Shown: in pieces, positions 3 through 41,773 of the stretch
How positions within the stretch are numbered: position 1 is the first letter of the stretch
How the letters are laid out: every line of letters begins with the position of its first letter
Assembly (NCBI GenBank): GCA_964388715.1
Contig: CAYMBN010000007.1
Location: forward strand, 1 to 64,000
Length of the DNA stretch: 64,000 nt
Origin: an uncultured Methanosarcinales archaeon
GTDB lineage: Archaea; Nanobdellota; Nanobdellia; Woesearchaeales; CAYMBN01
Direction of reading: 5' to 3'
Notes under the pieces: generated by a model
What the model was told of the DNA's origin: nothing
What the model saw: only the letters and a program-made list of their open reading frames with translations
Databases searched by the model: none
Made by a program: the position numbers and the translations under genes

Positions 3-3000
3 GATAATGATTGTGATAATCAAGTTGATGAAGAACTAACTCAACAATGTGGAACAACCAATGCTGGCCAATGTGAATTTGGTATACAAACTTGTAACAA
101 TGGTGGTTGGGGTGGATGTGTTGGTAATATTGAACCAGATAATGAAATCTGTGATGGATTAGATAATAATTGTAATAATATAATTGATGAAGGTGTTACT
201 AAAGAATGCGGTTCTAATATTGGTATTTGTCAAAAAGGAACTCAAACATGCCAAAACGGAAATTGGGGTCTTTGTATTGATGAAATAACACCTTTAACTG
301 AAACATGTAATGGACTTGATGATAATTGCGATGATTTAGTTGACAACAATCTTGAATGCGAATGTTTGGATGGTCAACAACAAACTTGTGGATCCAATAA
401 AGGAGCTTGTCAGGCTGGTACCCAAACCTGTGAAAATGGAAAATGGCAAGAATGTGTTGGTGAAATTACTTCAGTTGATGAGGTTTGTGATGGAATAGAC
501 AATGATTGTGATGGACAAATTGATGAAGAACTTATACAACAATGTGGAACTTCCAACATAGGCCAATGTAAACTAGGAGTTGAAATTTGCATGAGTGGTG
601 AATGGAGTGAATGTTCTGGAAACACTGAACCTAGTGAAGAAATCTGTGATGGAAAAGATAATGATTGTGACTCTTCAATTGATGAAGAATTAACACAACA
701 ATGTGGATCAACAGATAAAGGTATTTGTGAGTTTGGTTCTCAAACCTGTAATTTAGGTGAATGGTCAGAATGTTCAGGTAACATAAATCCAAGTGAAGAA
801 GTTTGCGATGGAAAAGATAATAATTGTGATGGACAAACTGATGAAAATATTGTTAAACAATGTGGAACAAGCAACATTGGACAATGTAAAATTGGCACAC
901 AAACTTGTAACAATGGTGGTTGGACATTATGTAGTGGAAATATAGAACCAGAATCAGAAGTTTGTGATGGAAAAGATAATAACTGTAACGGACAAATTGA
1001 TGAAAATGTTATCAGACAATGTGGTTCTTCTAATTTTGGACAATGTCAATTTGGTACTCAAACCTGTGAAAATGGAATATGGCAAAATTGCATAGGTAAT
1101 ATTGAACCAACAAAAGAAATCTGTGATAACATTGATAATGACTGTGATAGTAAAATTGATGAAGACATTACTCAAGAATGTGGATCAAATATTGGTATAT
1201 GTCAAAAAGGCACACAAACATGTCTTGAAGGACAATGGACATTATGTGTTAATGAAATAACTCCTAAAACAGAAACATGTAATGGAATTGATGATAACTG
1301 TGATGATCAAGTTGATAATAATATTGAATGTGAATGTATTAACGGACAACAACAAACATGTGGATCAAATATTGGCGCATGCCAAACCGGCATACAGACC
1401 TGTGAAAACGGTAAATGGCAAGAATGTAAAAACCAAATTACACCTGTTAATGAAATTTGTGATGGAATTGATAATGATTGTGATAATGTAATTGATGAAG
1501 ATCTTACCCAAAAATGTGGTTCAACAGATACTGGAACTTGTGAATTTGGTACCCAAACCTGTAAACTTGGTGTATGGCAAGAATGTAAAGGAGAAATAAC
1601 CCCAGTTGATGAGACCTGTGATGGATTTGACAATGATTGCAATGGCCAAGTTGATGATGGAGTTACACAACAATGTGGGGCTACTAATGTAGGACAATGT
1701 AAATATGGCACACAAATATGTGAAAATGGTCAATGGCAAGATTGTATTGGTACTATCACTCCAATATTTGAAAATTGTGATGGTCTTGATAATGATTGTG
1801 ATGGACAAATTGATGAAGAACTTTCAAAAAAATGTGGGGCATCTAATATTGGTGAGTGTAAACTAGGAACTCAAACTTGTGAAAATGGAGTATGGCAAGA
1901 TTGTGTAGGTAACATCGAATCAACAAAAGAAATATGTGATAATCTTGATAATGATTGTGATAATTCTATTGATGAACAACTTAGACAAGAATGCGGAACA
2001 AGTAATATTGGACAATGTAAACTAGGAACACAGGTATGTAATAGTGGAGAATGGTCTATATGTATGGGCAACATTGAACCAAGCACAGAAGTATGTGATA
2101 ATGTTGATAATGATTGTAACAATCAAATAGATGAAAGTGTAATCCAACAATGTGGATCATCTAATACTGGAATTTGTCAGTTTGGTGCTCAAACATGTAG
2201 TAATGGAGGATGGCTAACATGTTTAGCTAATATAGAACCAAACAATGAAGTTTGTGATAACCTTGATAATGATTGTGATGGACAAATTGACGAAGAAATA
2301 ACAAGAGAATGCGGATCAAACATTGGTATATGTAGAAAAGGTACACAAACATGTCAAAATGGAATATGGCAAATATGTACTAGTCAAACAACTCCTGAAA
2401 CTGAAATCTGTGATGGATTAGATAATGATTGTGATGGTGAAATTGATAATAATATTGAATGTGAATGTATTAATGGACAACAACAAGCTTGTGGTTCTGA
2501 TGAAGGTACTTGTCAAGCAGGCATACAAACATGTAACAATGGTATATGGCAAGAGTGTATTGGTCAAGTAACACATAAAGAAGAAACATGCAATAATCTC
2601 GATGATGATTGTGATGGTATTACTGATGATGAAATAACACAACAATGCGGTTTAACAAACGCTGGAATTTGTAAACTTGGTACACAAACCTGCATTGCAG
2701 GTGGTTGGTCTGTGTGTGAAGGCAAAACAGATCCTACTAATGAAATTTGTGATGGTCTAGACAATGATTGCGATGGTACTGTTGATGAAGACTTAATACA
2801 ACAATGTGGTGAAAGTAATCTTGGTGAATGTAAATTAGGAACTCAAACCTGTAACAATGGTGTCTGGAACGAATGTAAAGGCAATATTTCATCTCAAAAA
2901 GAAAATTGTGATACTCTTGATAATGATTGTGATGGTTTAATTGATGAAGAAATAACACAAGAATGTGGCATATCAAGTATTGGTGAATGTAAATTAGGAA

Positions 3001-4919: not shown

Positions 4920-4940
4920 AAAATTCATGAAAAAGAAAAA

Positions 4941-7900
4941 ATGAATAAAATCAAGAAAAGCATTGGACTTGTATTGTTTATTTTAGCTATAAGCTTATTG
5001 CTAAATCCAAGTATATTTGGTTTCACCCAATATTCATCAACTTCTGTAGAAAGAAATATGCCTAAAGCAGTACAACCAGGTGAAACACTACCAATTATGT
5101 TCAACATTTCAAACCTTGAAATAAATGAAATTTTCACAATTGAAGACAAACTAACACCTGATTTTAAGTTAATTGACTGGAACATAACAGGTGCTAAAGA
5201 AGATATTAGGTCAAGATTCCAACCAGACCAAGGATTATACGCATGGTCATTTGTACCTGAACTTGAAAATGTTAATCTAAGATACACTGTTGTAGCACCA
5301 AGGGATAAAACAGCTACACTTGAGTTTATTGCAGTTTGGTTTGGAAAATCAGGTCCAGGAGCAGAAAAAAGTCCTATTTATGTTGGAGAAATGGAATGTG
5401 GTAATAACATATGTGAAAAAGGTGAAACACCTGAAACATGTCCATCTGACTGTGGACAAATCTGTTTCAATGGTATTAAAGATGGTGACGAAACAGAAGT
5501 TGATTGTGGTGGTTCATGTAAATCATGCTGCCCAGACAAACATGTTAATGAATATGATTATGTAACAGACTGTGTAATTGACGAAAATTATCATGCACCT
5601 GACGGTCAAAAATGTTGTATACAAGATCAAATCAGCCCAGAAATTATTACAGAAGAATCCTCAACCTTAATTCAAGTACTTGAGAACGAATCTGCAACAA
5701 CCTATGTAACTGGAACAGACAATGTTATTGTACAAAACGCAACATTATATTATAGAGCAAAAGGTGATACAGAATGGAAATCAACTCCTATGACCTATGT
5801 TGAACCTGCACTTACAGCACCACGTAAAAAAATACCATTAATTTATCCAATTATTATTATATTCCTTACAATTATTGGTCTCTTGATTTGGTTATATCCA
5901 AAATACAAGAAATACCTAAAAGATCCTAAAAAACTAATTAAAGTATCCAAGAGATTATTAAATAAGAAAACAGTTAAAAAATTATTCCATAGAAACAGGA
6001 GGAGGAGGAAGAAGAAGAAAACAAACAAGAAAAAAACAAAAAACAAAAGAAAACACAAATTTGGAATTTTTATGATTTTATTAATAATCACATCTTTAAC
6101 ACTATTAAATATCTCTGCAGTAGAACCAGTAGCATCAGAAGAATCATACATGTTTGAACATGAACTAAAAGAAATACAAGGAGATATTGAATATTATATT
6201 GTTATAAGTGATGGTGCAGGAAACACAGCCTCATATGGAAGTAACACTCAACCATTTGAAATAAAAGTAGTTGATAATCTTCCACCAGAATTAATCAAAG
6301 AAATAGAAGACATTTCAATCCTAAAAAATACAAACCAAACAATAGACTTATCAGAATATTTTGAAGATATAGATCCACTTAATTATAAAATAACAGGTGC
6401 TACCGAAATATACACAGAAATAAATGAAGATATAATTACATTTATTCCTACTGTTACCTTCACAGGAACAGAACAATTAATGATAATTGCTAATGATTCA
6501 AAAGTCACAACAAATAGTAACTTATTCAATGTAAATATTATTGATTCAAATATACTTCTAACAAACAGTATAAACCAAAAAATAGGTTCAAAAGAGTTAA
6601 CTAAAACAGAAACAGGCTATGACCTAATCTTAAAATATATTAATTCAAGTGTTGAATTAAAAGAACTAATCACAATACCACAAACACTTGAAGTTAAAAT
6701 TGATAATTACACTGGAGAAAAACCAAGCAGAGGAGAAATCACAACCCAAGTTTTAGCTGTTAAAGAGATTGAAATAGAAAACGCTCTTGTAACATTGAAA
6801 AAATTATCAGATCTAAATGTTGTTGTCAAATGTAGTGACTTTGACTTTGAAAACTTTAACTGCAGTTCATGGGAAAACACAGAAATACCTTATACTGACT
6901 ATGAAGAATATATTGAATTTTCTGTTAATGAGTTCAGTGCTTATGGTGGAGCTTTAGTAGACTTTAATTCAAAACTAGATATAAGTTACATTGAACCAGT
7001 GTTCAAAGCAGAATATAAAGATCTTGAAGACAATATTATTGAAAATGCTTCTTGTATATTAAGAGTAGATAAACAAAATTATAACCTGTCTTCAGATAAC
7101 ATAAGTTACAACTACCAAAAAACATTTGAACCAGGCAAATACAAATGGTCTGTCATATGCTCTAAACAAGGGTATGACACACTTGCCAGAGAAAGTAGCA
7201 TAGAAATAAAAGAACCAGAACCAATCATCACATTCAACTCACCTACTTATTGGAGCACTGTAACAACAACCCCAATAATATTAAATATTAGTACTAGTAC
7301 AAATTCAACCTGTACATACTCAATTGAAAATTTCACAGATGACATTTCAACAAATAATTCATTTGAACATATAAAAGAACTAAATTTAAACAAAGGAAAC
7401 TATTCATTAAAAGTCAAATGTAAAGACATTATTAACAACACAAATCAAAAAACAGTTAAATTTAAAGTACATATTGATAATAATGCACCAGAAATTGCTA
7501 TCATCTCACCTACAGGTTACTATATCCCAAGTGACGAAATAAATCTAAAAGTAACCACTAATGAAGATGCAATGTGTTCTTATGAACTAGGTCCAATAAC
7601 AAACGAATTAATTGAGTTAATTGGTGATAGTGAAAATTACATTCTTAAATTTGTGAATAAACAAAATCAAGAAATCAATGAACAAGTATTTACTTACAGA
7701 GATAACAAAATCTGGATTGGAAACAGTGTAAGTAACCTTGTTACAGATGAATCCACCACCATTACTAAACAAGAAGCATTTGTCCTAAGTAAAGATGGTT
7801 ACTCTTACATTTTATACTATGAAGATATTATCCCTGGTGAAGATAATGATAACCAAGGCACATTAGTACTAAAAAAGAGTGATCAAATAATAGAATTACC

Positions 7901-8924
7901 TTATGAAGATCTCATTGCAGTATTAAGATTAAATAACTATGATTTTATAATAAATTTAACAAGTGATGATAGCTTCGCTGCAATTAGTATTGATATGGAT
8001 GGTAGCGGTATAATTGGTGACAAAGTAGTAAACAATATTTATAGTATAAACGGTGCTAAAATCACTCTCAACAACGACCTCAACAACAATTATATTGAGA
8101 TCTCAGCACCTGCTGAAGAAGACATTGTAACAATTCCTTTACATTATGATCAAACAACTGATGCACTTAATATAAATGTTAGTGCAATAACAGGAATTGA
8201 TTCATCAGGTTATTCTAATTATGGAATTAGAATTGAAACCAAAGAAGTATTAGGCCAACAAGACATAAAGATATATTATCCTCAAAAATCAATTTTCCAT
8301 GGCAATTATTTTAGTCAAGGTTATACAACAGAAGACCCTTATATTTACACTGAAATAATTCCTGAACAAGAATATGGTGAACACTATATTGATGTTGTAT
8401 GTGAAGATGAAGTAGGAAATACTAATAGTGTTAGAAATGCTTTTAGTATAAAATCTGAAAGAGAAATTAAACCAACAATTAATCAGATTTTATGTAACAA
8501 TGATTCTTGTGCAAATCTCGCATATAATTCATTAATTAGTGGAATTGATGTAAATTGTACTCCTGCTAATTACACAATTAATAATGTAAGTATTACACTA
8601 AAGAACATTGAAGACAATTCAACCTTAATACATGGAAAAGCCATATTTGACAACAACACAGAATATTGGAACCTTGACACAAATTATAGAATTGAAGATT
8701 CAGGTGAATTCAATCTAAGTGTTAAATGTTTAGATTCTGGTTATAATCATGATGAAAACTATGTAAGTTGGTTCATCCCATATGGTGAACTAGACATATC
8801 AATGGAACCATTTGACCTAATTGCATATTATAGAAAATCATTCAATGTAACATCAAAGGTAAGATGTATTGGTGGAGGAGAATGCATTAACATAAACGCT
8901 TTCCTTGACCCTTTAACAAAATAA
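4941..8924 (+). CDS. Exported multi-domain surface protein (Ig-like repeats, Cys modules, internal TM-basic-TM hairpin, S-layer-like insert)
   Basis: N-terminal signal peptide, CGNNICEKGETPETCPSDC module, repeated P-x-I-x-x-x-S-P...C-x-Y...C-x-D-x-x-x-N Ig-like units and many NxS/T sequons. Confidence 0.8.
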   Translation: MNKIKKSIGLVLFILAISLLLNPSIFGFTQYSSTSVERNMPKAVQPGETLPIMFNISNLEINEIFTIEDKLTPDFKLIDWNITGAKEDIRSRFQPDQGLYAWSFVPELENVNLRYTVVAPRDKTATLEFIAVWFGKSGPGAEKSPIYVGEMECGNNICEKGETPETCPSDCGQICFNGIKDGDETEVDCGGSCKSCCPDKHVNEYDYVTDCVIDENYHAPDGQKCCIQDQISPEIITEESSTLIQVLENESATTYVTGTDNVIVQNATLYYRAKGDTEWKSTPMTYVEPALTAPRKKIPLIYPIIIIFLTIIGLLIWLYPKYKKYLKDPKKLIKVSKRLLNKKTVKKLFHRNRRRRKKKKTNKKKTKNKRKHKFGIFMILLIITSLTLLNISAVEPVASEESYMFEHELKEIQGDIEYYIVISDGAGNTASYGSNTQPFEIKVVDNLPPELIKEIEDISILKNTNQTIDLSEYFEDIDPLNYKITGATEIYTEINEDIITFIPTVTFTGTEQLMIIANDSKVTTNSNLFNVNIIDSNILLTNSINQKIGSKELTKTETGYDLILKYINSSVELKELITIPQTLEVKIDNYTGEKPSRGEITTQVLAVKEIEIENALVTLKKLSDLNVVVKCSDFDFENFNCSSWENTEIPYTDYEEYIEFSVNEFSAYGGALVDFNSKLDISYIEPVFKAEYKDLEDNIIENASCILRVDKQNYNLSSDNISYNYQKTFEPGKYKWSVICSKQGYDTLARESSIEIKEPEPIITFNSPTYWSTVTTTPIILNISTSTNSTCTYSIENFTDDISTNNSFEHIKELNLNKGNYSLKVKCKDIINNTNQKTVKFKVHIDNNAPEIAIISPTGYYIPSDEINLKVTTNEDAMCSYELGPITNELIELIGDSENYILKFVNKQNQEINEQVFTYRDNKIWIGNSVSNLVTDESTTITKQEAFVLSKDGYSYILYYEDIIPGEDNDNQGTLVLKKSDQIIELPYEDLIAVLRLNNYDFIINLTSDDSFAAISIDMDGSGIIGDKVVNNIYSINGAKITLNNDLNNNYIEISAPAEEDIVTIPLHYDQTTDALNINVSAITGIDSSGYSNYGIRIETKEVLGQQDIKIYYPQKSIFHGNYFSQGYTTEDPYIYTEIIPEQEYGEHYIDVVCEDEVGNTNSVRNAFSIKSEREIKPTINQILCNNDSCANLAYNSLISGIDVNCTPANYTINNVSITLKNIEDNSTLIHGKAIFDNNTEYWNLDTNYRIEDSGEFNLSVKCLDSGYNHDENYVSWFIPYGELDISMEPFDLIAYYRKSFNVTSKVRCIGGGECININAFLDPLTK

Positions 8925-8982: not shown

Positions 8983-10449
8983 ATGAAAAAAAGAAAAACA
9001 AAAGGAATTGTATTAACAATTTTGTTAATTATATTTATGTTAGGAGTAGTTAAATTATCACTCTCCTCAACAATACAATTCACATATAATGATTGTTATA
9101 CTGCCAGGGTAGGCACTGTTAGCAGAGAATTTTGTTGGACCTGTTCTGAAGGCATTACAATAACCCAATGTAACCAACTCCAAGATAATGCTAAAAATGA
9201 TAAGAATAATTGGATTACACAAGAAACAGATAGACAAGAAGAAGAAGAACGTAGAAAACAAGAAGAGCAAGCAAGAAAGATTAATGACTTACTCAATGAC
9301 GTAAAAGATATTGCAAATGATGCTGTTAAAATTTGTAATAGAGATAATACTTTTGATTATGGAACAAATAACTGGGATAATTATGAAGAGAACATTAAAA
9401 CACAAGTTGAAAATAAAAAACAAACTGCTTCAAATACAATATTACCAATGCAAATAAAGTTTACTCGAGATAATTATCAAACATATTATAATTATATTGA
9501 TAGAATTAACAATGCTTTTGATGATAGAAAAGAAAGAAACAAAATAATTGAAGAAGAATATAAAATAGAACAACTTAAGAAAAAAGACACTGATTTAGAT
9601 GGTGTTAAAGATTTCTATGACCTATGCGCTGAAACACCCGTATTTGAAGCAATTGATAAAGATGGATGTTCTTGTTCACAAAAAGATGATGATAATGATA
9701 ACGTAGATAATTGCCTTGACAAATGTAAAAATATATCTGAAACAGTAAATAGTTACTCAGATATTAAAGCACGTAGAAATGATACTGACGGTTGTGTAGA
9801 TGATTATGATAAAGATGGTATAATTGATGTATTCGACTCTTGCCCTGAAAAAGAAGAATCATTTGATTCACTTTCTGACATGATATATGAATTTAATGAT
9901 TTTGATGGTTGTCCTGATGATCTTGATGATGATGGCATTGCAGATGAAGAAGATGAAAAACCAAATCAATTATTCCCAATAACAATGAGTTATGCATTCC
10001 AATATGGTGGAAAAGTATATGGAGATTACATTGTATGGCACGATAATAGATTTGGTGACTATGATATTTTTATGCTCAACCTAGAAACAGGCAATGAAAC
10101 ACAAATTACCAATAATACAAATGATCAAATTAACCCAGATATTTATGATAATATAATAATATGGCAAGACAAAAGAAATGTTAACGATGATATTTACATC
10201 TATAACATTGATACAGGAGTAGAAAAAGCAATAACAATTGACAAGTATACAAATGTTTATCCAATGATACATGAAAACAAGATTGTATGGCAAAGAGCTG
10301 ACTTCACAACTTTAGAAGAACCTCATTTTGATGTTATGTTGTTTATTTTAGATGAAAGCGAATTAGATACAGGATCTGATACTGAAACAGAATCAAATGC
10401 TAACACTGAATCAAATAATGAAAATACAAACGAGAATGAAAATCAATAA
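8983..10449 (+). CDS. Secreted protein with thrombospondin type-3-like Ca-binding repeats and 3 beta-propeller blades
   Basis: Signal peptide. DxDxDGxxDxxDxC repeats. Blades IVWHDNRFGDYDIFML, IIWQDKRNVNDDIYIY and IVWQRAD...DVMLF (Methanosarcina surface/TolB-like type). Confidence 0.8.
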   Translation: MKKRKTKGIVLTILLIIFMLGVVKLSLSSTIQFTYNDCYTARVGTVSREFCWTCSEGITITQCNQLQDNAKNDKNNWITQETDRQEEEERRKQEEQARKINDLLNDVKDIANDAVKICNRDNTFDYGTNNWDNYEENIKTQVENKKQTASNTILPMQIKFTRDNYQTYYNYIDRINNAFDDRKERNKIIEEEYKIEQLKKKDTDLDGVKDFYDLCAETPVFEAIDKDGCSCSQKDDDNDNVDNCLDKCKNISETVNSYSDIKARRNDTDGCVDDYDKDGIIDVFDSCPEKEESFDSLSDMIYEFNDFDGCPDDLDDDGIADEEDEKPNQLFPITMSYAFQYGGKVYGDYIVWHDNRFGDYDIFMLNLETGNETQITNNTNDQINPDIYDNIIIWQDKRNVNDDIYIYNIDTGVEKAITIDKYTNVYPMIHENKIVWQRADFTTLEEPHFDVMLFILDESELDTGSDTETESNANTESNNENTNENENQ

Positions 10450-11944
10450 ATGGGCTATTGGAATTGTATTAATTTTAGTAATCATTAGTTTACAATCCAA
10501 TATTTCTACAGGAAAAGGTGGATGTTATAGAGGACCAGCTACAGAAGGAGTATATAAGAGAAGTGATGGACATTATGTCACTGAACATGGAACCAAACTA
10601 GAAATGGAAGAACTTCTTGAAAAAGGAATAATCTCATGTCGTTCTACAATGGGTGGAGGAGTACAATGCTTTGACAGAGTTGGAGTACCTTGTTTAAGTG
10701 ATTATATTAAAGGACAAAGAGCAAGCAAAGAACCAACTATTGAAAAAGACATATCAGGTGTTGTTGTAAGTATTGAAATGTTTGGTCAAACACATGAACT
10801 TAAATGGAAATGTAAAAAAGGAATGAAATTTACAGAATGCCAAAAAGAAGTTGACAAAGCATATAACCAAAAAAATACTTTTATTGCAAACCTAAGACAA
10901 CAAGCAAAAGATAAAATCAATGAAGAATTCCAACAAACAGATACCTATTCACAAAACGCACTTGCATATTATATCCAATTATTTGGATTCAATAAAATAT
11001 TTGGTGCTTATCTTAAAGATTATCAATATTTAGTTGGAGAGATATTTACTGAAGAAGATCTATTAAGAATTATTTACTATGAATTAAAAGACAAACTAAT
11101 TACCCTAAAAAGTGTGCTTGAAAACAAAATTACAAGTAAAAGTGGTCAATTAATTGAAGAATCTCTTGGATCAAATCTAATGTATCTTGATTATTACATA
11201 CAAGAAGCAGATCTTCCTAGAATAACCAGACAATGGATCCTACAAAACTTTGCTTTCAGAAACACTGTAATATATATTGGTGATTTTTCACAACATGAAA
11301 CAATAGATATAATTTATGGTCTTTTTGAAGAAAATATAATGGCTATAACAGAAAAAGAGCATGAATTAAAAGGTTTAAGTGAAGACAGAATAGAAGAACA
11401 AAAAGAAGAAAATAAGAGAATCGAACTAAAATTTGTAGGTTATGGTTTTGATGGATTATATGAAACAGAAAAAGCACATATCTTAAAATTATATAATTAT
11501 GAACAAGAATATTTTATTGAACTAGATGAAAAAAGAAAAGAGAAAATAAACATTGATGTATTATTCAACGATAAAGATGGTGATGGTGTTAAAGATTATT
11601 TTGATTTATGTACAACTGAATTAGAAAATTGGAATGGTTTCCAAGATAATGATGGTTGTATTGATGAACTACCTGAATTAGCAAAAGGACAACTCATCCA
11701 ATTAACAGATGATGATATTGACCAAATTAATCCTTCTATTTATGAAAACAAAATTGTTTGGAAAGAAGAAGATAATTTGGTTTTGTATGATATTGAACAA
11801 GGTAAAACAGGTGCTTTTGCAATTGACAGTAAAAATCCTCTAACACCTGTAATACACAAGGACAAAATAGTATTTTCTGACGAGAAAAACAAAAATCATG
11901 ATGTTTATGTTTTAGATATTAGTGAGGTCACATTTAGAAGATGA
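10436..11944 (+). CDS. Secreted paralogue: variable N-terminal domain, a TSP3-like motif and 2 propeller blades
   Basis: ATG at 10436 gives signal peptide MKINKWAIGIVLILVIISL. Motifs DKDGDGVKDYFDLC...NGFQDNDGC, DQINPSIYENKIVW and PVIHKDKIVFSD. Overlaps the upstream gene by 14 nt. Confidence 0.8.
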   Translation: MKINKWAIGIVLILVIISLQSNISTGKGGCYRGPATEGVYKRSDGHYVTEHGTKLEMEELLEKGIISCRSTMGGGVQCFDRVGVPCLSDYIKGQRASKEPTIEKDISGVVVSIEMFGQTHELKWKCKKGMKFTECQKEVDKAYNQKNTFIANLRQQAKDKINEEFQQTDTYSQNALAYYIQLFGFNKIFGAYLKDYQYLVGEIFTEEDLLRIIYYELKDKLITLKSVLENKITSKSGQLIEESLGSNLMYLDYYIQEADLPRITRQWILQNFAFRNTVIYIGDFSQHETIDIIYGLFEENIMAITEKEHELKGLSEDRIEEQKEENKRIELKFVGYGFDGLYETEKAHILKLYNYEQEYFIELDEKRKEKINIDVLFNDKDGDGVKDYFDLCTTELENWNGFQDNDGCIDELPELAKGQLIQLTDDDIDQINPSIYENKIVWKEEDNLVLYDIEQGKTGAFAIDSKNPLTPVIHKDKIVFSDEKNKNHDVYVLDISEVTFRR

Positions 11945-22800: not shown

Positions 22801-23444
22801 TAGCAGAAGTAATGAATAAACCACAATCACTAGCAGATTTATTTGATATTACTCCAGAACAAGCTCAAAAAATTGCTGATAATTATCTTAATATTATGGC
22901 AGAAATAGAATTTTCTAAAGTAAACCCAAAATTAACATCAGAAGATTTGTTTAAGAAATCAGATGCAAGATCACAATCAGCACAATGGCAATCAATAAAA
23001 CAAGCAACAGGAGTAGGAGAACCAGGTGTTGTTAATACCCAAACAAAAACACCTGCTCAAAACATTATTGATTTAATCAAAAGCCATGTTGACTTTGAAG
23101 GTTCTGATATTAATATAGAGGATTATATTAGTGAAGTTACCAAATTACTCACAGGTTCTGATGACTTTGAAGCATTATCACAAGAACAACAAGAACAAGT
23201 GTACAGGGAAATGAAAAATTTAATTGAACGTTATTCCCAAGTTGCTGTTCAAGGAAATAATCTAGAAGTTGACACAACACAACAAGGCAAGGAAGATGCT
23301 ATAACATCAAAAGTACCATTCAAGATATCATTTAGCCAATTTAACAGAGGCTTATTTGACAAAGGGTTATGGGGTTTTGTTGACCACCTTTGTAATGTAC
23401 AATTTGAAGTATTAGGATATATGGAGGCAAACTGTGCAGGATGA
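16806..23444 (+). CDS. 2212-aa secreted coiled-coil protein with Gly-rich hydrophobic/amphipathic segments (candidate translocator or pore former)
   Basis: Signal peptide and Pro-rich N-terminus. Long Q/E/K heptad regions. Segment SVVMWGASGVIGGVTKLAGGALGKATAYL...VGATGLKLGGKVIKGVGYGY. ATGA overlaps at both ends. The function is an inference. Confidence 0.6.
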   Translation: MKNNNPLSRIIALIMIMLVISPNIIAWSDNMNDYLDELDLDSWVEDPPEIPETSTPQKPGLIKIPMMPPIPGMPIDIGIITVKPPQGKDDLPEWWFEVGNQKIGLPSVKRDESGRIVPQKINSKEELLQILNKPIPEKIEFPEQSLRYELQDSYTLKPTVNVKPLSEIILEEYFKQGYSEQLGMNFAQFYDQKVEEIEESEELSREEEVMTKYFYCFDSELTDEERSIISKILDEQPELMDEFYSTRMDHIREVATTDLEQQIKDGKITLELQDPSLSAELQKAAAETLFSTMTGMIGTTPIGSSFSAAIESTQKATEETDEEKTKQAIEDIKSNLNDITSALNQFNQKTQVNKDALNKFTNEHGNLMQLPGRLLASMSGMWGTQEVVTTRTADSVGLMVDDLITKVDNKMERNNEIIQRIDNLKEKLTQELLTEETIEEINNGINEIYEDFNDVYRGNSINQFQTQLQEQLTDQADALKTGVWNTKLITNAWSSTFNILGAGGAPVPTLEPSFLKEIEAKYSAENIETLTLAKTGGDIFETLKDIRTNDIEAYKFIATSSTRNDFINNKFNPYKVMTTFGGLGGMDIGAIGMSEAAEIGSGISNSIIKYSPSIGSVYSDVVTIMENVHNFDYEQLDPKSATKTFFDHFADLPNIQQQRLEIAEAKIQERDDIINNLKESELGEYTGDELESGKINFGKILDEYDNLMEWSRETDDELSRGIRENIAGEFYNRMDKILQDNLGISIQDIESIIQNRDQNFDIFGYNILPTTLTLIQTEIVENENLKVIDEMIYNNNLLGALVENTEGEQADNYALQLLERENLLEKNKWKIAVQNQKKSEIQNFLTAKEIERDLGGPGFAQIADKKDYEELQYKYDQQQRSLPDLQMEQEANNARISQIEQEIIDLKQGQGDPHKRGLEILQKQELLKEEQEKRVVINALVQDKTKIEEIELKIQQGTASDEEQAMLRTMKNEQGNALNRWQAVNVMQMEMYERQVQDHQAEILGMQLEDIGKDITSTLQSGDLSGETGVYSIEGLKTKEEAEQAQAAAFANKLAYARNLKGMVDGGVMRYIGVNVESDGSLKGVGGFKSLFTGDGRSWAQFVNLNGLSSQGDMSAWKAGKAIFGNTREYNQEYFEASREFGQELVALETVAELLKTGITMNEIENMNEQGFRKAMSEKMGEVNNEALQIMWQDVQKARNSDIFQSSTLFENDDGTYTVLELPTDINPLNEQADKLTDHWLGSLLAPNIKTSVVMWGASGVIGGVTKLAGGALGKATAYLSNKAVSKSAHWLTKLVSKVGATGLKLGGKVIKGVGYGYEMTNKVGESLNKFLTAKLIGKTVKTTGQKIIKIGINILEHEVSELFLEEALLGPAYGVIGEELSGTKGIGGHEWGDAVETLYGGRAGGLNINTNNYFTSQGQIMNYQTIQGDVMSFVNEMNNYYKQKGMDTIEVVNTHDTTFGVEAVEVRLQSGQKMTIASQGSAYDAGITNNRMSTSNIGVDINGNTIAIVNVNNNANLNEILTSLQNNPNVDSSAIKTQTNILGGITAIEFQDGATTKVIKTEVATLDHYTDAAGSQVEIKQTTTLEDAVHDAVEEIISDEDISQEQRKRYWGILTTDAAEFVNVPAFFKQFTPEQIKQEIADDILSTLKHEPPTVAFAKLQEYGLMDAQLNAKTTNPIIQDYVKKVKPTVQTFEQKRKNLMEKLRTQRTKLESSIEQTIDQLKEKLATTQDNHEKGMLQSAINALQAQVHGLQELSLETQVANLLRKMATTNDDAEFNELQDLLQKKQGILDQKRIDKINKLADALVQQSIALAQQQTLENIDKLAEDMRQTAREKAEDLTKVESVIIQARLNFLLRAGRYSDIQNMAEDAKITQEGKDYLEKTNILDAYAALANVLEGNTDIKTLNNLIQTLQAQRVKVIDQDFLEFGYDYGYDINQLIGMIETAKTNIRTKRGDMVIQNKIDTIRDAEGTFKSTDDLVALGVVNEMIRIGYSYSDIAEVMNKPQSLADLFDITPEQAQKIADNYLNIMAEIEFSKVNPKLTSEDLFKKSDARSQSAQWQSIKQATGVGEPGVVNTQTKTPAQNIIDLIKSHVDFEGSDINIEDYISEVTKLLTGSDDFEALSQEQQEQVYREMKNLIERYSQVAVQGNNLEVDTTQQGKEDAITSKVPFKISFSQFNRGLFDKGLWGFVDHLCNVQFEVLGYMEANCAG

Positions 23445-26400
23445 GACAAATAAGTAAAAAACTAATAGCTGTATTAATGATTTTATGTATTTTATCTCCT
23501 AGCATTCTTGCACAAAAAGTCAAATTAAAATGTGGAAACTCAGTGCCATTTATCAGACAAACAGTTGAAGAACAAGCACAAGAACAAGATATTATAGGAT
23601 TAGATAACCATCTTATGCAAGAAATTGCACATATGCTTGATAGTGGTGCAACTCGTGAAGAAGTCCTAGACACTTTAATAGACCTAGGAATCCAAAGTGA
23701 ACAAGCTCAAAATTTACTTGAAAATTTAAGAGGTATGCAACATCAAGTTGTTCAAGACAGTGCAAAAAAAATTGCAACAGAAAAAGGAACAAAAATAACA
23801 CAATCACAAATTGATGATGTATTTAACCTAGCTCAATATGATACAAACATTGCAGATCTATTAAGTTCTGATAACCCTAGTGTAGCTGAACATCTGGAAA
23901 AAATGGCAAGATTATCTTTAAAACCAGAATATGTTAAACAATATGCTGAAGAACAAGCAAAATGGCTTAAAGATTATAAAGAGAACGGTTATAGAGATTT
24001 TAGAAAAAAACTTATTAAAGCAAAAACTGAAAGCCAAGATAAAAAACATTCTGCTGTATCTGAATTTTTTATGAAAAAAGGCTGGACATTAGAAGCATTT
24101 GTTCTTGTAGCTATTCAATCAGGTGCAAGAGGAATTGAGATAAGTGCAAATGATGGTGTTTTCTTTAGAAATGACGATGGAGTAATTATTGAATTCTTAC
24201 CAAACAAAGTTGATTATAACCATGAATATACTAAAAATAGATTAAGTGCAATAAGAGAAGCTATTAGTGGTGTTTTTGGAGACACTGGTTTTGAAATCAC
24301 TATACATGATAATGTGTTAGCTCCTGAAAAAGGTGGTGAGGAAAGTATCAAATTAGCACACAAGATAAGTGCAAGAAGTGTATTATTCCATGTAGAGATT
24401 AGAGAAGGTTATTATAATAAATATGGTGCAGAAAGTGTAGCTGAAGTCCCTGCTAAAATGGCTGAACTAGTTGTTAAGAACGCAGTTAGAAATAGTGAAT
24501 CTACTCATAAGGTCATTATAACATTTGAAAACAATCCAGGCTTAACAGCTGCTGAACAAATTAGAATTTTAAACGAAATAAAAAGAATAGCAGAACTAGA
24601 ACTTCAACAAAGGGGTTGGGATGCAAATAAAATAAATCAAAATTTACTAATTGAAACAACAACTGACCTTTCTCATTATGAAGTTCAAGATACTAATGAA
24701 GATGCTTTATCACAATTACTTTATCTATTAGAAAACACAGGTGATATCAAAATAGGAGAAATGCATTTAGCAAACCTTGATGGTCCTGGAATCAAAGAAC
24801 AACCTTTCTCTTTTTCAGATGATGACCACAAGAGAATAAGTGATCCATTAGGAGTAATTGATAATAAAGTTGCTGTTGCAATGGTAAAAGCAAAAGCAAT
24901 TGACAGAATAAAACAAAGAATTGGTATAGATATCAATACACCACTTACACCTCAACAAAAACAAGCTGTTGAAAACGCTTTAAGACAAGAAGGATTAACA
25001 CATTTACTTATTGAAGAAGATCATGAAACAAATCAAGCAGATATAGACACTGTTAATTATAAGAATTATGAAACAGAAGGATTTGAAGTAATAAGAGCAA
25101 GAGGAGAACAAATATTAAAACAAAACCCAGACCCATTAATTGATTCCAATGATAGAATGCTCCAATTCATGGCAGGAGTCCATGGAAATCAAGAAAGTGT
25201 TATTGATTATATAACAAAAAAACAAATTGCAGAAATCATTGCCCAACACAAAGGAAAAGGTAAAGTTACAGAATTAATCACACCAGAATTACTTAAACTA
25301 CCTATTGAACTTAGAAAAAAAGCAATTAAAAAACTTGGAGATATTCTTGAAAGAATCAATAATCATTTTGAAGAAAGACAATTTACTTTAGCTAACCAAG
25401 CAGATTTCCTAAGATTACTTGAAGATGAAATAATAAACCTTAAACTAGGATTTATACAAGAAGAAGTTGAATTTAATCAAGGAGATTATCTACAACTTAC
25501 TTCTTCAGAAGAAATTGAATCTGCTTATAAAAACGGTTATATGCTTGTCAGTAGAGGAGAAAATGGTGTAATAACATTTGTAAGAGCACAAAGTAGTAGT
25601 GATGACATTAGCAGGTTTGGTAAAAAAACATCAGATCCTGTTTTAATAAGAATCAACCCACAATATGTTCAACAACAAACAAGCGAATTAACTATTACAA
25701 AAAATATACCAAAACAACTTATTGAATTCTTTGACATGAAAGATAAAACATGGAAACCAATCAGCGAGATGTATGGAAAAAGAGACTTTGCAGGAATTGA
25801 ACAAGATTTCAAAGATAAGAAAATAAAACAAAGGTATGATGAAGTCGCTGAAAAAAGTGATTATAAAGAAGAAATGGAAGCAATTAAAGGAGAACTAACT
25901 GATCGAGAGCTAGAAGAAGGTCAAGCAATGAAAGAAGCATTGTTTATTGAAGCAAGATTATCAAGTTTATCTCCTAGTCAAAAAAAGAATTTTAACAAAC
26001 ATTACAGAGATGCATTGTATAGTGCACATAGTAAAGCAAGCGCAATTTTATACGCCATCAAAAAAGCTGATCCTTTAACTTCAAATGAAAAACAATATGA
26101 TTTTGTTAACAGATTCATTGACAAGATCAAACAACAAAAAAATGATAGAATCAAAGCAATTAAAGAAATGGATCTATTTGATCTATTTGGAGAATATTCC
26201 CTATTATCAGAAGAAAAACAAAAAATTGTAGACAAACTAATCCAAGCACAAGGAGTTGATCTTGAAGATACAACAGGAAAAGCATATGAAAAAGCATTAG
26301 GAAAAGCACTACAGTTATACACAATGTTCAGATACTTATCATCTAACCAAAAGAAATTCTTTAACCAAGTACTCCCAATGTATCATTCTAATACAAACCT

Positions 26401-29400
26401 TTTTATTGCATTTGTAAATACACTTAAAGAAGCAATAAATGCTAATTTTGCCGACGAAAATGAAATATTAGACCAAATCTTCAACCTACTCCAACCAGAA
26501 AGAAAAAAAGGAGATGTAATTGATAATTTAGAAAAATTAAACAAAGCTATACAAGAATATTATAATAAGGACTATGTAGCTGGTGGCGGTTTTGTAGAAT
26601 CACCACATAGTAAAGGAGATTATGATAAACATCTTGTTAAATTACATGTTAGCATGGATGCTCGAACCAACCCACATGTAATATTAAAAATTATACAAGC
26701 ATTAGAACGAAAAGGAGCCAAGTTTAAATTTGTTAATCCAAAAGATCTAGCATTTAAAATGGCTGGTTATACTGATGAACAGATCCAACAATTAAAAAAG
26801 ACTAAGAATCCATTTGAAGAAATTCCTGTTAGAGACGAAACACAAATTCAAAATAATAACTTAATAGATGGGTTTAATGTAATAAAAATGTTCACAATCT
26901 ATCCATCTGATGCAAAAACAGCATTAGAAATAGCAGAAACAATAGCCCAAATCCTTGATAATATTGGTATGTTTGATAACAATGCAAAAATAGCTAAATC
27001 AGACACAAGACTTCTTGGTCCTATAAGTGTAAGATCAGATATCCTAAAAAGAGAGTATCAACCAGGTGAATCAATTAGAATACCTAGTAAAAAACAATTA
27101 GAAGAATTCTTTGATTGGTTTGATCAATTTAAAGAACAACAAACAATGCCTGCACCATTATTAATGGGACACCAACAAGTAAGACAAAAAGCAGAAGAAC
27201 TTGGAATAGATACTGACCCAGTTGTACTTAGAATGTTACTTGATGATTCCTTTGATATAGAAACATATGATAATTTTTACAATGAAATTGCAAAAAAATA
27301 TCCACAAATTCTCAAAGGAAAAGAAATTGGAATTTGGAATAATAATAGGATGGAAATATGGAGAATTATTGATGTTTTAGACAATGGTGAAACATTTAAA
27401 CTAAGCCAAGAACCTTTCCTAACCCAAACATTAACAAAACAAGACTTATTAGACGCAATACAAAGAGCTGAATTTGAAAAACAAAAACCAAAACAAGGAG
27501 AAACCATCCAAACATGGGATCAAAACACAAGAAAAATTGAAGATTGGAAAGTAATCAAACTAGAAGATGACAAAATTATACTTCAAAATATAAACAATCA
27601 ACAATTAATTGTATCAATGTCTTATCCAGAACTAATACAAGGCATGGAAAAAGCAGAAGAAATGAAAACAAGAGTATATTTTGAACAAGGCTTTGCAAAA
27701 ATTGGATTAACTCCACAATTAGCAGCCTCAACCCATATTATATTTTCAACTCATAAAAGTAAAGAATTTATTGAAGAAAAGATTAATCAAGGTGGACAAA
27801 ATGCAAAATATGGTGCTCAATTTGCTTCAAATAAATTCTTTGATGTGGCATTAAGAGATGCTATAGTTGAATTACTTGAAAATCAAGAATTAGATGAAGA
27901 TGAAATAAAAAGATTAAACGAAGTCCTAAGTAAATTAGATGATGAATTAACAATGTTAACAAAATTACTTTCAGATTATGTTTCTGAATCAACCTTATTA
28001 GCTCCTGATGCAAAAGGAGGAGAAGGAGCAGTACATCAATTAGACAACTTAGAACAAGCATTTAAACAAAAAATACAAACCTTAACAGGAGTTCCAGTAG
28101 AAGATCTTGCAGTCAAAGTAATGGATTATGGTTCAGATACTCGTTTATATGATCAACGAGAACCAGGTGAAAAATTAATTCTTGAAAGAAATGTCCACAG
28201 TAATAATATTGTGGAAGTATATGCACTTGCTCAAATGCCTGACATAAAAACAAGAGTTGTTTTAATGGAAAAAGTTAAAGGACCTACATTAGAACAAATT
28301 ATCAAAAAAACAAAACCAGGAGAAAAAGTAATTATTGATGGTAAAGAATTAACATTAACAGAACTTGTAAGACAAGTTCATGAACAAATTGGTGTAAACG
28401 CTCTTGAAACTATTTTTGAACAAAAATTAATTTACCCTGACATGAAACCAGCTAATATAATGATAGAAATTGAAGATGGTAAAATAGTTGCTAAATTAAT
28501 TGACTTAACTGCAATGTTAGACATATCTCAAGGAAAAGTAGGCCCACCTTATATGTTTGATCCTTATTATCAATCACCACAACAAGCTAGGTCAGATACA
28601 ATTGATCAAAGATCACAAGTATTTTCATTAGCTGCTAGCTTATATGAATCCTTAACAGGTCAAAGAATGTCATCAGAAATAATAAAAATAAAAAGAGGCG
28701 TTGACATCACACAATTAAGAGCAAAACTAAATAGAATTAAAGCAAGAAAAAATGAATTAGATCAAAAATTAAAAGCAGGACAAGCACTAACACCTGAAGA
28801 AATAAAAGAACTACAGGAAACATCCAAAGAAAGAAATGAAATAAGAATGTTCTTAATAAAAACATTTCGAGAAGTTACAAAAGATTTAGCATTTAGTGAC
28901 ATTGAACAAATAATAAACAGTAAAAAACAAGGAATGTCTCAAGAGGATCAAGAATTATTAGATATAATCAAAGATTTATTTGCCTTTGGAGGAATATACC
29001 AAGGAACAATAGAAGAAAAAGTTGCCGTCCTAGAACAAGAAGGAAGAATTCAAATTGATAGAAACACAGCATTAACAGAAATTGAAGATATGATTGAAGC
29101 TCGTACTGAAGTTAATGATGATATTGTAGATGAAAAAACCTTGCTAGCTAATGAAGAAGCTATAGAAGCAAGTGTAGAACAAACATATAAAGAAAAAGGA
29201 ATACAACATAATGTACAAGATACAAGAAGTAAAACCAATTGTGGCTCTTCTAGTATAGGTTGTGGCTTAGGAAACAAACCAAAAATACCAAGAAGAACCC
29301 AAAGACAAGCTGCAATAACTGCAGCCGAAGAAACAAAAGATGTCACTCCAATACAAGTTGAAGATTCACTTAAAATTAGAAGATATATAGATGACTTAGG

Positions 29401-32400
29401 CCCAATAGATGCATTATTAGAAGAAGTTTTCCCTAGAAAAGTTAAATTATATATTCCTGTTTTAGTAGAAGATTTCCCAGACATCAGAACCACTACTAGA
29501 GTTAATGGAAGAATAAAATACTCAACAACAGGTTTACTTGAATATCCTACAGAAAACGTTGGTAAACACGTTGGCCAAGATTATAAAGATATTGATGAAG
29601 CAAGACAAGATGCAATAGGAAAAGTAAAAACCAAAGATACTGATAAGATAAAAGAAGAATTAGCAGACATGATTGCTTATAGAAAAGCAGTAGAACAAAA
29701 CTTTATGATTGCCTTTTCTTCTGAAAAAGCTGCTAAAAAATACTTATTAGAAAATCATCAACAAAAAGATGAAAATGGAAATATTAAAAGAGTCTTAGGA
29801 TATTTAATAGAAGTTGAAGTTAAAAGAAAAGATGTAATAATTGGATCATACTCTGCTAATGGAAAAAGAAAAAAGAACTTATTTATCCCAGGAGGAATAA
29901 AACAAAGTGAAGCACACGGAGAACTAGCTGGTGTAAGAAGACCTAAAAAACCCAAAATTGATCAACATACTAAAGTCACTGAAAGCGTAAAAAATATCTT
30001 AAAAAATATGTATGGTATTGCAAGAGGCACTAGTGTTGGCAAATTAGAAGATGCTATAAAAGCATTAAAAGATTTAAAAAAACTAACAAAAGATGAAGTA
30101 TTAATCCAAACTATCAATGATAATATTGAAAACATCAAAATAATAAACCTAATTGCACACAATTACAAAGAAAGAGGATATTTAATTGAAAAACTTGTTG
30201 GTAAAGATGTACTTAAACCAGATGGAAAACTTGAAATCATAAGAAGAAGGTTTGGTTCAAAAGTTACTGAAAATTTATTAATAGTTTTACAAAGAAATGT
30301 AAACAAATGGGAAATTACTCTTAGTGACCTGATTAAGTTAGTTGATGAAATGCAACTAAACATGAAATACAAAGAAGGTGCAACTGATGTTGAGATAGAA
30401 AATCAAATTGAATACTATCTTGATTATATAGTTATCAAAGAAATTCCAATGATAGAAGACGTAAAAAATAATGATTTACAGGTTAGTAAATTCTTAATAG
30501 AAAGAGGCGTTCCTCTTCATACACTTGGAATCTATGAAAGAAAGGAATTAATTAAATACATCCAAACAATTGGAATAGATAGAAAATTAGCTGAACATGT
30601 TAATCAAGTTAGAAGAATGATTCGTAGAGTTGTAAGATTCTTAAAACAAGGCAATTATGAAAAATATGGCCATCTTGATGAAAGAGCACTTGATAGAGCA
30701 GTAATAATATTAGAAACAGATGATTTAACATTTATACCTAATGAACTAACTGAAGTAATTACACAAGGAAGACAAAGATGGAGTTCTAATATAATTACAG
30801 AACTTTCAAGAACAATAAGAGAAAGACAAGGTCAACAAAACTTTGATTTTGGTGTGAGAAAACATACCATAGCAAATGAAATATTAAACATTATCAATGC
30901 AGAAGTTGCTATTGCTTCACAAAAAGCAATATCTGATCTTGACGCAATTCAATCAATCGCAAACAGAGTAGCAAGCAAAACAACTGAGGAATTACAAAAA
31001 ATAGGATTAACACCTGAATTATTAAGAGATTCACTAAATGCAATTAGAGAACTGTACAATAAACAAGAAGATGAAAAAGCATACATAGAAGAAAATGCAC
31101 CAAAAGAAGCATATAAATTATTCAACAATCCAGACATAAACAATGAAGTTAAAATCAAACATCTTGAAAAATTATTGGCAATGGTAGAAGAACCTGCAAC
31201 TAAAAGATATATTGACGCATTAGTCAAAAATCTAAAATTAATCCAAGGTGTTGAAAAAAACCAAAAACAAGAAATGAAAGATGAAATGGAATGTAATAGT
31301 CCATGTAAAAGGGGAAGTGGCTACATAATAAAAACTTTAAAAGACAAATTTGGACAAGAAAAAGGTGAAAAAATATTCAAAATTGCCATGAAAGTTCTCA
31401 GAGCACATGGTAAAGGTTACTTATCTGTAGCAGAGATGCTAGAATTATTCAGAAAAAGAATCCCTAATGATGAATTCATAGGAGAATTAACAACAGATTA
31501 TGCAATACAAACAGCTATTGAAAATCATATAGAAAGAATCCTATTACCAAACATGGACATATCTAGAAACATGAATGTAGAATATGATCTATCAAAAAGA
31601 TATTCCACTAGTTTAATAACTCAAGGTTACAAAGTACCATTAACACAAGTTACTGCAAAAAAACTATCTCAAAAATATTATGACAGGTATGGAGTTGAAC
31701 TCAAAAGAATTTGGTACAGAGGAGTAGCAGAAGATAGTAGCTGGTCTGTTCCAGAAGAAAATGGAAGGATCCGTAAATCAACATCAGATGCAATCCGTTC
31801 TCCTGAAGCAGCACTTGGTTATCCTTACCATCTTGGAGCACATCAATCACAAGCATTATTAATAATTGACTTAGACAAAATACCTCAAGAAAATATAAGA
31901 GCAGTAGATAATGATCCAAGATTAGGACCTAACCATATAAGAATTGACGCAGAATTACCAAAAGGATCATATTACACTGTAAAAGCATCTGATCTATTTT
32001 ACAAAAAAGGAGAAAGAATCCAAGGTGTTACTTTAAATTTTGATGAAAAATTAGGACAAGGATTACACCATTTATTATACAGCGACAGTGAATTCAATGA
32101 AGAAGAAATGAAGAAAAAAACAATCCCTGAAACAATGCGTGATGATCTAGAATTAAGAGGATGGATGGAATATGATTATGATATTGAAGAAGACATTATA
32201 TATGTTTTGCATGATGGAAAAAAATATGGATTTTATGGTTTCATAGATGGTGGTGTTCAATACTGGTATAAATTTGAACATGGAAAATTTATTGATGCCA
32301 TCTTAATAGAAGATAAAAAAGACACAGAATTCCTAGAACAATTATTTGAAGAAAGACCTTTAACATCACAAGCACAACTAGCTCTTGCCAAAAGAAACAT

Positions 32401-41771: not shown

Positions 41772-41773
41772 AA

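Follow-up and report, generated by a model that had tools for sequence, protein, structure and literature searches.

A seven-gene cluster for predicted surface proteins and a giant multi-domain protein, possibly host-contact equipment of a Woesearchaeota-like archaeon

Results

A plus-strand cluster of seven closely spaced genes

The DNA analysed here is a 64,000-nt stretch of contig CAYMBN010000007.1 (assembly GCA_964388715.1), referred to below as the window, and our subject is a cluster of seven consecutive open reading frames (ORF1 to ORF7, 1.5 to 11.6 kb long), all on the plus strand and together spanning positions 3..35056 (Table 1). The same seven genes had been described in an initial annotation of this DNA, with which our ORF listing agrees. 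The overlaps reported there were also seen: start and stop codons share an ATGA at 11941, 16806 and 23441 (ORF4/ORF5, ORF5/ORF6 and ORF6/ORF7, respectively), and ORF3 and ORF4 overlap by 14 nt, provided that ORF4 starts at 10436. The remaining intergenic gaps within the cluster measure 21 nt and 58 nt. Shine-Dalgarno-like motifs (GAGGT, GAGG and GGAGG) were located within the 3′ ends of ORF4, ORF5 and ORF6, and a convergent gene starting 3 nt past the ORF7 stop codon closes the unit.

The G+C content of the DNA is 30%. Between positions 1 and 35056 the longest stop-free run reached 263 codons in the three minus frames, compared with 1623 to 3882 codons in the plus frames, which excludes chance ORFs. 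Codon usage of ORF1 to ORF7 resembles that of housekeeping genes (r = 0.82-0.90; G+C at third codon positions 0.13-0.19), and the cluster was therefore considered to be resident DNA. A scan for sigma-70 promoters and terminators, which is ill-suited to archaea, returned 106 elements against 108 expected from shuffled sequence.

N-termini were scored by a crude criterion that asks for basic residues ahead of a hydrophobic stretch and does not address cleavage. By this rule all six visible starts in the cluster were signal-like, in keeping with the signal peptides previously assigned to them, as opposed to 3/26 of the other ORFs in the window (Fisher p = 9e-5). From this arrangement the seven genes look co-transcribed, probably as a single polycistronic unit, and all of their products look exported.

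Table 1. Coordinates of the cluster, its predicted domains and neighbouring features in the 64,000-nt window
Feature	Length or position in protein (aa)	Position in window (nt)	Strand	Remarks
ORF1	at least 1638	3..4919	+	5′ end open, outside the window
ORF1 C-terminal transmembrane segment	1591-1609	4773-4829	+	
ORF2	1327	4941..8924	+	
ORF2 internal hydrophobic region	~298-394	5830-6125	+	segments at aa 298-316 and 376-394 (hydropathy)
A-rich tandem within ORF2		6012-6055		
ORF3	488	8983..10449	+	
ORF3 blades, three	336-460	9988-10362	+	blade alignment
ORF4	502, from 10436	10436..11944	+	upstream ATG at 10397 also open
ORF4 blades, two	425-502	11708-11941	+	blade alignment
ORF5	1622	11941..16809	+	
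ORF5 blades, two	278-357	12772-13011	+	blade alignment
ORF5 discoidin/CBM32-like lectin domain (predicted)	936-1038	14746-15054	+	PF00754, 43 bits against 28.2; PDB NagH/NagJ CBM32, E = 5.5e-5
ORF6	2212	16806..23444	+	
ORF7	3871	23441..35056	+	
ORF7 candidate phospho-Ser/Thr lyase (RamC_N / LanL N-terminal / SpvC type)	~1050-1260	26588-27220	+	three leads
ORF7 Hanks-type Ser/Thr kinase (predicted)	1555-1777	28103-28771	+	PF00069, 59.1 bits against 31.7
ORF7 domain in common with one 194-aa protein (P0004)	2738-2863	31652-32029	+	phmmer, E = 9.5e-12
ORF7 HExxH (zincin-like), the only one in ORF7	3442-3446	33764-33778	+	motif scan
ORF7 HD-superfamily phosphohydrolase domain (predicted)	~3621-3810	34301-34870	+	PF01966, 30.6 bits against 22, on segment
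Gene downstream of ORF7		35060..35743	-	HEAT-repeat protein
prs		38137-39066	-	
Extra DNA between ScpA and prs		39321-45305		~6 kb
Cadherin-like surface protein		46225-47643	-	
Giant orphan	1859	50414-55993	+	
[FeFe] hydrogenase genes		57432-60566	-	

Adhesin-type families of ORF1 to ORF5

ORF1, earlier described as a cysteine stalk, fits this description. It carries MopE-type cysteine-rich repeats (PF11617, E = 5.7e-72, 238 bits against a threshold of 27, in 14 stretches) with units of 53 aa encoded by 159-nt tandem units that are ~70% alike; Cys makes up 9.8% of its residues, and a C-terminal transmembrane (TM) segment is followed by a polybasic tail. By the PF11617 score its repeats classify as MopE-type, for which metal binding is putative.

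ORF2 had been labelled as an immunoglobulin (Ig)/S-layer anchor. The Ig part of this label was upheld weakly, in that the large ectodomain gave sub-threshold matches to Y_Y_Y (23.4 bits, cut-off 26.6) and Big_3_3 (18.5 bits), and the S-layer part was not: no S-layer family or structure was found in Pfam, NCBIfam or PDB, and the PDB matches obtained were noise. Past its signal-like N-terminus, ORF2 has two further hydrophobic segments around a polybasic loop. The first of these, a TM segment with a polybasic tail, is like the C-terminus of ORF1, and is followed in frame by a second signal-like hydrophobic segment. From its hydropathy, ORF2 looks like either two fused surface-protein genes or a protein that crosses the membrane twice, with a basic loop in the cytoplasm. 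The gene also contains an A-rich tandem.

The view of ORF3, ORF4 and ORF5 as three propeller paralogues agreed with the TIGR04275 model, BLASTP and blade alignment. All three have in common a module of Asp-rich thrombospondin type 3 (TSP3)-like repeats and Methanosarcina-type propeller blades, with pairwise BLASTP E values of 1e-10 to 1e-17 (8e-17 for ORF4-ORF5, 8e-11 for ORF4-ORF3), and ORF3 additionally matched an MtsC-like TSP3 model (E = 5.9e-7). Scores for TIGR04275 (beta_prop_Msarc) were 100.3 bits for ORF3, 57.8 bits for ORF4 (E = 6.6e-16) and 58.7 bits for ORF5. The latter two (E ~1e-16) fall below the cut-off of 85 because they have only two repeats each. Blades total seven across 8983-13011, and since they number only 3, 2 and 2, no single protein closes a propeller, which suggests that a propeller might be assembled from several chains. 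Ahead of the first blade in both ORF4 and ORF5, an extra strand-like ‘...LT’ segment was observed.

Besides its blades and predicted lectin domain, ORF5 has Cys-rich modules and, at its C-terminus, repeats of the MopE type that resemble ORF1 (BLASTP E = 1e-14). Judged by their families, which are adhesin-type as the annotation of a stalk/adhesin front half had it, ORF1 to ORF5 are ordinary kinds of adhesin and surface protein.

Predicted enzyme domains of the giant protein ORF7

ORF7 begins with a signal-like N-terminus and continues as a giant multi-domain protein. Its former designation as a multi-enzyme giant was borne out by a kinase domain, an HD domain, an HExxH motif and a candidate lyase. 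The kinase region aligned with PknB 3orm (E = 3.6e-9), YPDMKPAN corresponding to HRDVKPAN and DLT to DFG, and the alignment continued through the APE/alpha-F region (YQSPQQAR...SLAASLYESLTG), with the C-lobe kept. Catalytic Asp, Lys and Asn and the Mg-binding Asp are retained, the HRD Arg and APE Glu are replaced, and the assignment of the Gly-rich loop (GGEGAV) and AVK Lys was made by eye alone. With a score above threshold and the key catalytic residues in place, the domain classifies as Hanks-type, and its activity is predicted.

Three independent leads converge on a probable phospho-Ser/Thr lyase domain at aa ~1050-1260. The Pfam model RamC_N matched with E = 1.9e-5 (24.7 bits, under the cut-off of 27). 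The NCBIfam LanL model matched at model positions 25-58 (E = 2.5e-4, 19.5 bits), collinear with a match of the kinase region to positions 271-399 of the same model (E = 4.2e-11, 41.9 bits). Finally, the top three Atlas clusters (scores 0.89, 0.88 and 0.87, sharing 205, 199 and 196 of 256 features) carry RamC_N or VRP3, the family of SpvC; among VRP3-bearing clusters, one scoring 0.88 has VRP3 in 17% of its members and one scoring 0.82 in 90%. Catalytic residues given for SpvC/OspF are K104, H106, K136 and Y158 (PMC4159009). ORF7 K1067-L-H1069 fits the K-x-H formed by SpvC K104/H106, and K136 (+32) may have its counterpart in the lysines at +27 and +29, a correspondence with no tool-made alignment behind it. 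No lyase match to this region was obtained by sequence search of PDB.

The motif type of HD-GYP proteins is HHExxDGxGYP. At aa 3767-3777 of ORF7 an HHx6GYP motif (HHRFHYQGGYP) has the same spacing, with the Glu and Asp replaced. The predicted HD domain, assigned by PF01966, is in this respect HD-GYP-like; scores for HD_5 (19.5 bits, cut-off 27.2) and HDIG (21.4 bits, cut-off 27.6) were both below threshold. Around the HExxH motif there were weak Pfam matches only (Peptidase_M78, E = 0.016; DUF6782, E = 0.045).

Upstream of the HExxH motif, aa 2738-2863 are 38% identical in pairwise alignment to the 194-aa protein P0004 (E = 2e-21), and the region has no Pfam family. An ADP-ribosyltransferase identity proposed for it by eye (YRG, STS and DAE motifs) was rejected, as P0004 keeps WYRG and not the Ser/Glu motifs, and there was no Pfam match. 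As a side observation, aa 2889-2972 (~32105-32356) weakly match P0005, a 277-aa protein of three ~90-aa tandem repeats (E = 8e-4), which itself matches the cyanophage baseplate plug family Pam3_gp18 (E = 3.4e-7).

Against shorter proteins, aa 1036-1790 retrieved 7 generic bacterial kinases among 7998 candidates (E = 1e-5 to 5e-4, 12-23% query coverage). PDB sequence searches with aa 1-1550, 1771-2720 and 2690-3871 gave nothing useful, and three repeat segments picked by eye were discarded, with an hhalign probability of 0.2 and no internal repeats in self-BLAST. When an AlphaFold2 model of aa 180-1379 was compared with PDB by Foldseek, none of at least 500 listed matches reached E <= 0.001. 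Many of the weak ones (E = 0.01-0.08) were TIM barrels, among them xylose isomerase and an endonuclease IV-type apurinic/apyrimidinic endonuclease; as a lead from this low-confidence model, aa ~230-560 (~24130-25120; beta/alpha pattern at ~230-440) may form an alpha/beta barrel enzyme domain.

ORF6, a protein of no recognised family

ORF6 has a signal-like N-terminus with an acidic mature start, is acidic overall and contains 3 Cys in total. Of its earlier description as a coiled-coil hydrophobic protein, the first half is partly correct: by a crude test heptad-like windows cover ~19% of residues, and Gly/Ala/Lys-rich patches occur near aa 576 and aa 1253 (hydrophobicity is taken up in the Discussion). 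No family was found for it in Pfam, NCBIfam, PHROGs, PADLOC or PDB. A PADLOC scan returned kinase models and weak Cas3-HD matches only. A possible identity as an SctB2 translocon was dismissed, given that its Pfam E value of 0.032 is at chance level among 11 segments and 24,736 models.

Comparison with known systems

Giant adhesive or multi-enzyme proteins have already been proposed as host-interaction tools in DPANN archaea and other episymbionts (PMC6642349, PMC8204110, PMC8080830, bioRxiv 10.1101/2023.11.21.568195), the groups concerned being Nanohaloarchaeota (SPEARE), Woese- and Pacearchaeota (large murein-hydrolase proteins), Vampirococcus and Omnitrophota. SPEARE proteins are like the present case in being giant (3,300-8,500 aa) and mostly extracytoplasmic, in combining adhesion with enzyme domains and in their proposed role in host contact or material transfer in DPANN, and their hallmarks are described as serine protease, laminin-G adhesion and type III restriction-enzyme domains and a TM segment near the C-terminus (PMC6642349). 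None of these domains was found in ORF6 or ORF7 with Pfam and NCBIfam, and ORF7 has no TM segment past its N-terminus, which places it outside the SPEARE group; here, adhesion and enzymes are distributed among seven genes. Archaeovorins and other giant Omnitrophota proteins likewise have N-terminal signal peptides, long domain-free stretches and cytoplasm-type enzymes with a predicted location outside the cell, with a proposed role in attack or attachment, but they are bacterial, exceed 10,000 aa and carry glycosyltransferases, methylases, NUDIX domains and peptidases (bioRxiv 10.1101/2023.11.21.568195). According to the same source they lie beside loci for type II/IV secretion and beside pilZ genes, which the present window lacks.

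The order of the lyase-like segment and the Ser/Thr kinase in ORF7 is that of LanKC/LanL proteins, and the central Ser/Thr kinase of these proteins is present. In contrast to them, ORF7 has no LanC-like cyclase, has ~290 extra residues between lyase and kinase, and scores far under the LanL cut-off of 650 with its 41.9 and 19.5 bits; the module also sits in a 3871-aa protein with a signal-like N-terminus. The K-x-H motif resembles that of SpvC (PMC4159009), and in the same paper lyases of the SpvC and LanL kind are described as exclusive, presumably to bacteria.

Polyvalent proteins resemble ORF7 in joining numerous enzyme domains of unrelated kinds, kinases and peptidases among them, in a single very long chain that is presumably delivered into another cell; they are reported as mobile-element-borne, with kinases that lack the C-lobe, and as rare in archaea, and the term ‘signal peptide’ occurs 0 times in that paper (PMC5512222). 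ORF7 is chromosomal by codon usage, without phage or plasmid matches and with its kinase C-lobe kept, and does not belong to this class.

An analogy with MARTX or AB toxins had been drawn for the cluster. It proved functional only, in that ORF7 is likewise a giant, apparently secreted protein with several effector-type enzymes, whereas every MARTX-defining feature tested was absent. MARTX toxins are defined by glycine-rich repeats at both ends, an autoprocessing cysteine protease, type I secretion genes and a C-terminal secretion signal. Glycine-rich MARTX/RTX repeats were detected neither in Pfam scans of whole ORF7 and nine segments of it nor by self-BLAST, ORF7 had no cysteine protease domain of this type, no ABC exporter or membrane-fusion genes were present among the 27 other ORFs, and the predicted signal of ORF7 is N-terminal and Sec-type rather than C-terminal. 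As regards polymorphic toxins, no immunity gene lies directly downstream on the same strand, the next gene being convergent; the Zn-protease DUF4157 is described as a polymorphic-toxin signature (PMC6393860), and it was not reported for the HExxH region even at E up to 1.

ORF3 to ORF5 share the blade repeat and Asp-rich calcium-binding-type repeats with TIGR04275 Methanosarcina-type propeller proteins and with the Myxococcus cohesion protein MtsC, but have only 2 or 3 blades per protein, spread over three overlapping genes.

Judged by its predicted domains, ORF7 is outside the SPEARE, MARTX, polymorphic-toxin, polyvalent-protein and LanKC/LanL families, at least one defining feature of each being absent. 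The cluster appears to differ from all of them in having a predicted lyase and kinase module without a cyclase behind a signal-like N-terminus in an archaeon, in the pairing of this module with an HD-GYP-like domain, in partial propellers distributed over three overlapping genes, and in a near-total lack of relatives. No published description of such a cluster was found in the literature searched, with subscription journals outside its coverage.

Organism and neighbouring genes

The prs gene was used as a probe in a scan of species-representative genomes, of which the best 80 loci were kept; no 100% match was found, the window's own genome not being among the representatives. The best locus, L001, came from a Candidatus Woesearchaeota metagenome-assembled genome (MAG; 59% identity), and a Micrarchaeota MAG reached 54%. 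The genes for ScpA, prs and prefoldin are direct neighbours in L001 and share 52%, 59% and 35% identity with the window copies. As the same three genes are adjacent in L001, a Woesearchaeota-like DPANN archaeon is supported as the host of the cluster, in line with the DPANN lineage assumed beforehand. Genes for a prefoldin alpha subunit of archaeal type (TIGR00293, 87 bits; cut-off 53.9) and for an ATPase resembling Rad50/arcadin lie in the window. No giant ORFs were found in loci L001 and L004; L001 (3.6 kb) ends ~400 nt beyond prefoldin, so that the neighbouring region lies outside it.

Several features of the surroundings were recorded in passing. Of the 80 best loci in the prs scan most were bacterial (~50% identity), which marks this gene as bacterial in type. 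Relative to L001 there is extra DNA between ScpA and prs, containing genes for a Rad50/arcadin-4-like ATPase, an R2K ATP-grasp protein, an SPFH protein and a secreted protein with a TM segment. Further along, a PKD/Big_9/cadherin-like surface protein with a lipobox-like ‘LVTAC’ N-terminus also matches part of the myxosortase-dependent M36 peptidase model. A giant orphan begins with a signal-like segment, has 8% Cys and contains a long acidic linker rich in Glu and Pro; Pfam and NCBIfam gave no family for it, and BLAST no similarity to ORF1 to ORF7. The window of this DPANN-like archaeon further encodes a group A6 NADH-dependent [FeFe] hydrogenase (808 bits) together with NuoF- and NuoE-like subunits, and IscS, IscU and CutA are encoded beside it.

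Discussion

We tentatively favour the reading that this chromosomal, probably polycistronic and lineage-specific operon of exported surface proteins is host-contact equipment of a small, probably host-dependent Woesearchaeota-like DPANN archaeon. The products of ORF1 to ORF7 would leave through Sec. ORF1 and ORF2 would anchor the assembly on the cell and project it outward, and ORF3 to ORF5, with their calcium-type repeats, propeller blades and the lectin domain of ORF5, would bind glycans on the host surface, possibly as an oligomeric propeller; ORF6 might serve as a long helical tether or accessory protein. ORF7 is plausibly a contact-dependent effector, the delivery of which we infer entirely, acting at or in the host cell. 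There its kinase would phosphorylate Ser/Thr and its lyase then eliminate the phosphate, an irreversible modification of the target, and the HD-GYP-like domain could hydrolyse nucleotide signals. As kinase and lyase need ATP and protein substrates, ORF7 should work inside a cell, that of the host if it is exported, and cytoplasm-type enzyme domains behind a signal-like N-terminus make action in another cell reasonable to suppose.

A number of results weigh against this reading. Scanning of the 27 other ORFs revealed no pore, translocon, secretion ATPase or immunity gene in the window. ORF6 had been cast as the translocator, a label that is unsupported given the lack of a family match and of any internal membrane segment: past the N-terminus its best hydropathy is 1.15, well under membrane grade, which also removes the ‘hydrophobic’ from its earlier description, and nothing marks its predicted product as a pore or translocon. 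Among near-length candidates ORF6 found only itself (7999 scored), as did ORF7 (2121 scored), and a phmmer search with ORF7 aa 2690-3871 against 1.84 billion representatives recovered only the query protein, P0004 and the weakly matching 277-aa repeat protein. The conserved synteny expected at the outset could not be shown, since no full-length relative of ORF6 or ORF7 was found; the 80 prs-selected loci gave no match to any gene of the cluster. Missing relatives do not, however, disprove a function. The lyase, HD-GYP and zincin assignments in ORF7 are all under curated cut-offs, and single-sequence AlphaFold2 models were unusable (mean predicted local distance difference test score 38.2 for aa 180-1379 and 33.6 for aa 2672-3871). 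The low Cys content of ORF6 and ORF7 was rejected as a mark of translocation, many cytoplasmic proteins of the window also having 0-0.5% Cys. Lastly, Lys-rich residues (QKVKLK) directly follow the hydrophobic stretch of ORF7. A Lys-rich start in this position hampers Sec export in bacteria, which leaves a cytoplasmic location of ORF7 as a live rival.

That rival, the main one and in our estimate somewhat unlikely, holds that ORF7 is not exported: its N-terminus would be an uncleaved anchor and its bulk would lie in the archaeon's own cytoplasm as a membrane-tethered hub for signalling or protein modification, tied to the adhesins by co-expression only. Kinase and HD enzymes depend on ATP and metal ions and usually reside in the cytoplasm, basic residues flank the hydrophobic stretch on both sides (MRQISKK...QKVKLK), the Cys content is like that of the window's cytoplasmic proteins, and the absence of visible translocation machinery from the window fits as well. 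On the other hand, the N-terminus of ORF7 is built like those of ORF5 and ORF6, with a basic n-region that leads into ~17 hydrophobic residues and then into a small residue and Ala; an uncharged stretch of ~17 residues is short for a stable transmembrane helix; and ORF6, which is translationally coupled to ORF7, has the clearly acidic mature start typical of exported proteins. Export without entry into a host is an unlikely variant, with all seven proteins acting extracellularly as a coat or matrix in which the enzymes of ORF7 scavenge nucleotides or phosphate, cleave proteins or persist as inactive scaffolds. It sits well with the lack of a translocon in the window and with the ability of HD and zincin enzymes to act without ATP, and giant Omnitrophota proteins, whose cytoplasm-type enzyme domains are predicted to be extracellular, pose the same puzzle (bioRxiv 10.1101/2023.11.21.568195). 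It sits less well with a kinase that retains the catalytic Asp and Asn and the Mg-binding Asp, pointing to ATP-dependent activity, and with a lyase and kinase pair that uses ATP on protein substrates (PMC4159009).

Distinctly unlikely, at the bold end, is the proposal of ORF7 as a Sec-exported, contact-delivered multi-enzyme effector that would be the first in archaea to unite a kinase, a phospho-lyase (irreversible ‘eliminylation’ of host proteins) and an HD-GYP-type nucleotide-signal hydrolase, displayed on an adhesin whose seven-bladed head is built from the 3 + 2 + 2 partial propellers of overlapping genes, with ORF6 as a new bridging or translocation protein. Very unlikely indeed is a mobile-element origin, in which ORF6 and ORF7 would be remnants of a virus or conjugative element, the former tape-measure-like and the latter a polyvalent protein injected with DNA. 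ORF6 is long and helical with Gly-rich patches, and ORF7 is multi-enzymatic as polyvalent proteins are (PMC5512222). The nearest Atlas clusters of ORF6 are viral hypothetical proteins, yet their scores of 0.76-0.78 lie within the range of shuffled proteins, which makes that search uninformative. Moreover, PHROGs gave 0 matches for ORF2 to ORF7, and tblastn gave none in 50,697 phage records for ORF6, ORF7 aa 1-1550 and ORF7 aa 1771-3871, nor in 72,556 plasmid records for ORF6 and ORF7 aa 1771-3871. Codon usage is native, genes for a capsid, terminase or integrase are absent from the window, as are tRNAs and Rfam matches, both ORF6 and ORF7 have signal-like N-termini, and the ORF7 kinase keeps the C-lobe that is described as absent from polyvalent-type kinases (PMC5512222).

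Little is known of the means by which DPANN archaea attach to their hosts and exploit them; SPEARE and the large murein-hydrolase proteins are among the few candidate molecules put forward. With no full-length relative of ORF6 or ORF7 detected, the generality of the cluster described here is limited, at present to one lineage. It does provide testable material, in the form of apparently co-expressed adhesins with a predicted lectin domain and a giant protein with separable kinase, lyase-like and HD domains. If it is true that ORF7 reaches host cells, archaea would be using enzyme effectors like those of bacterial pathogens, without a recognised injection machine.

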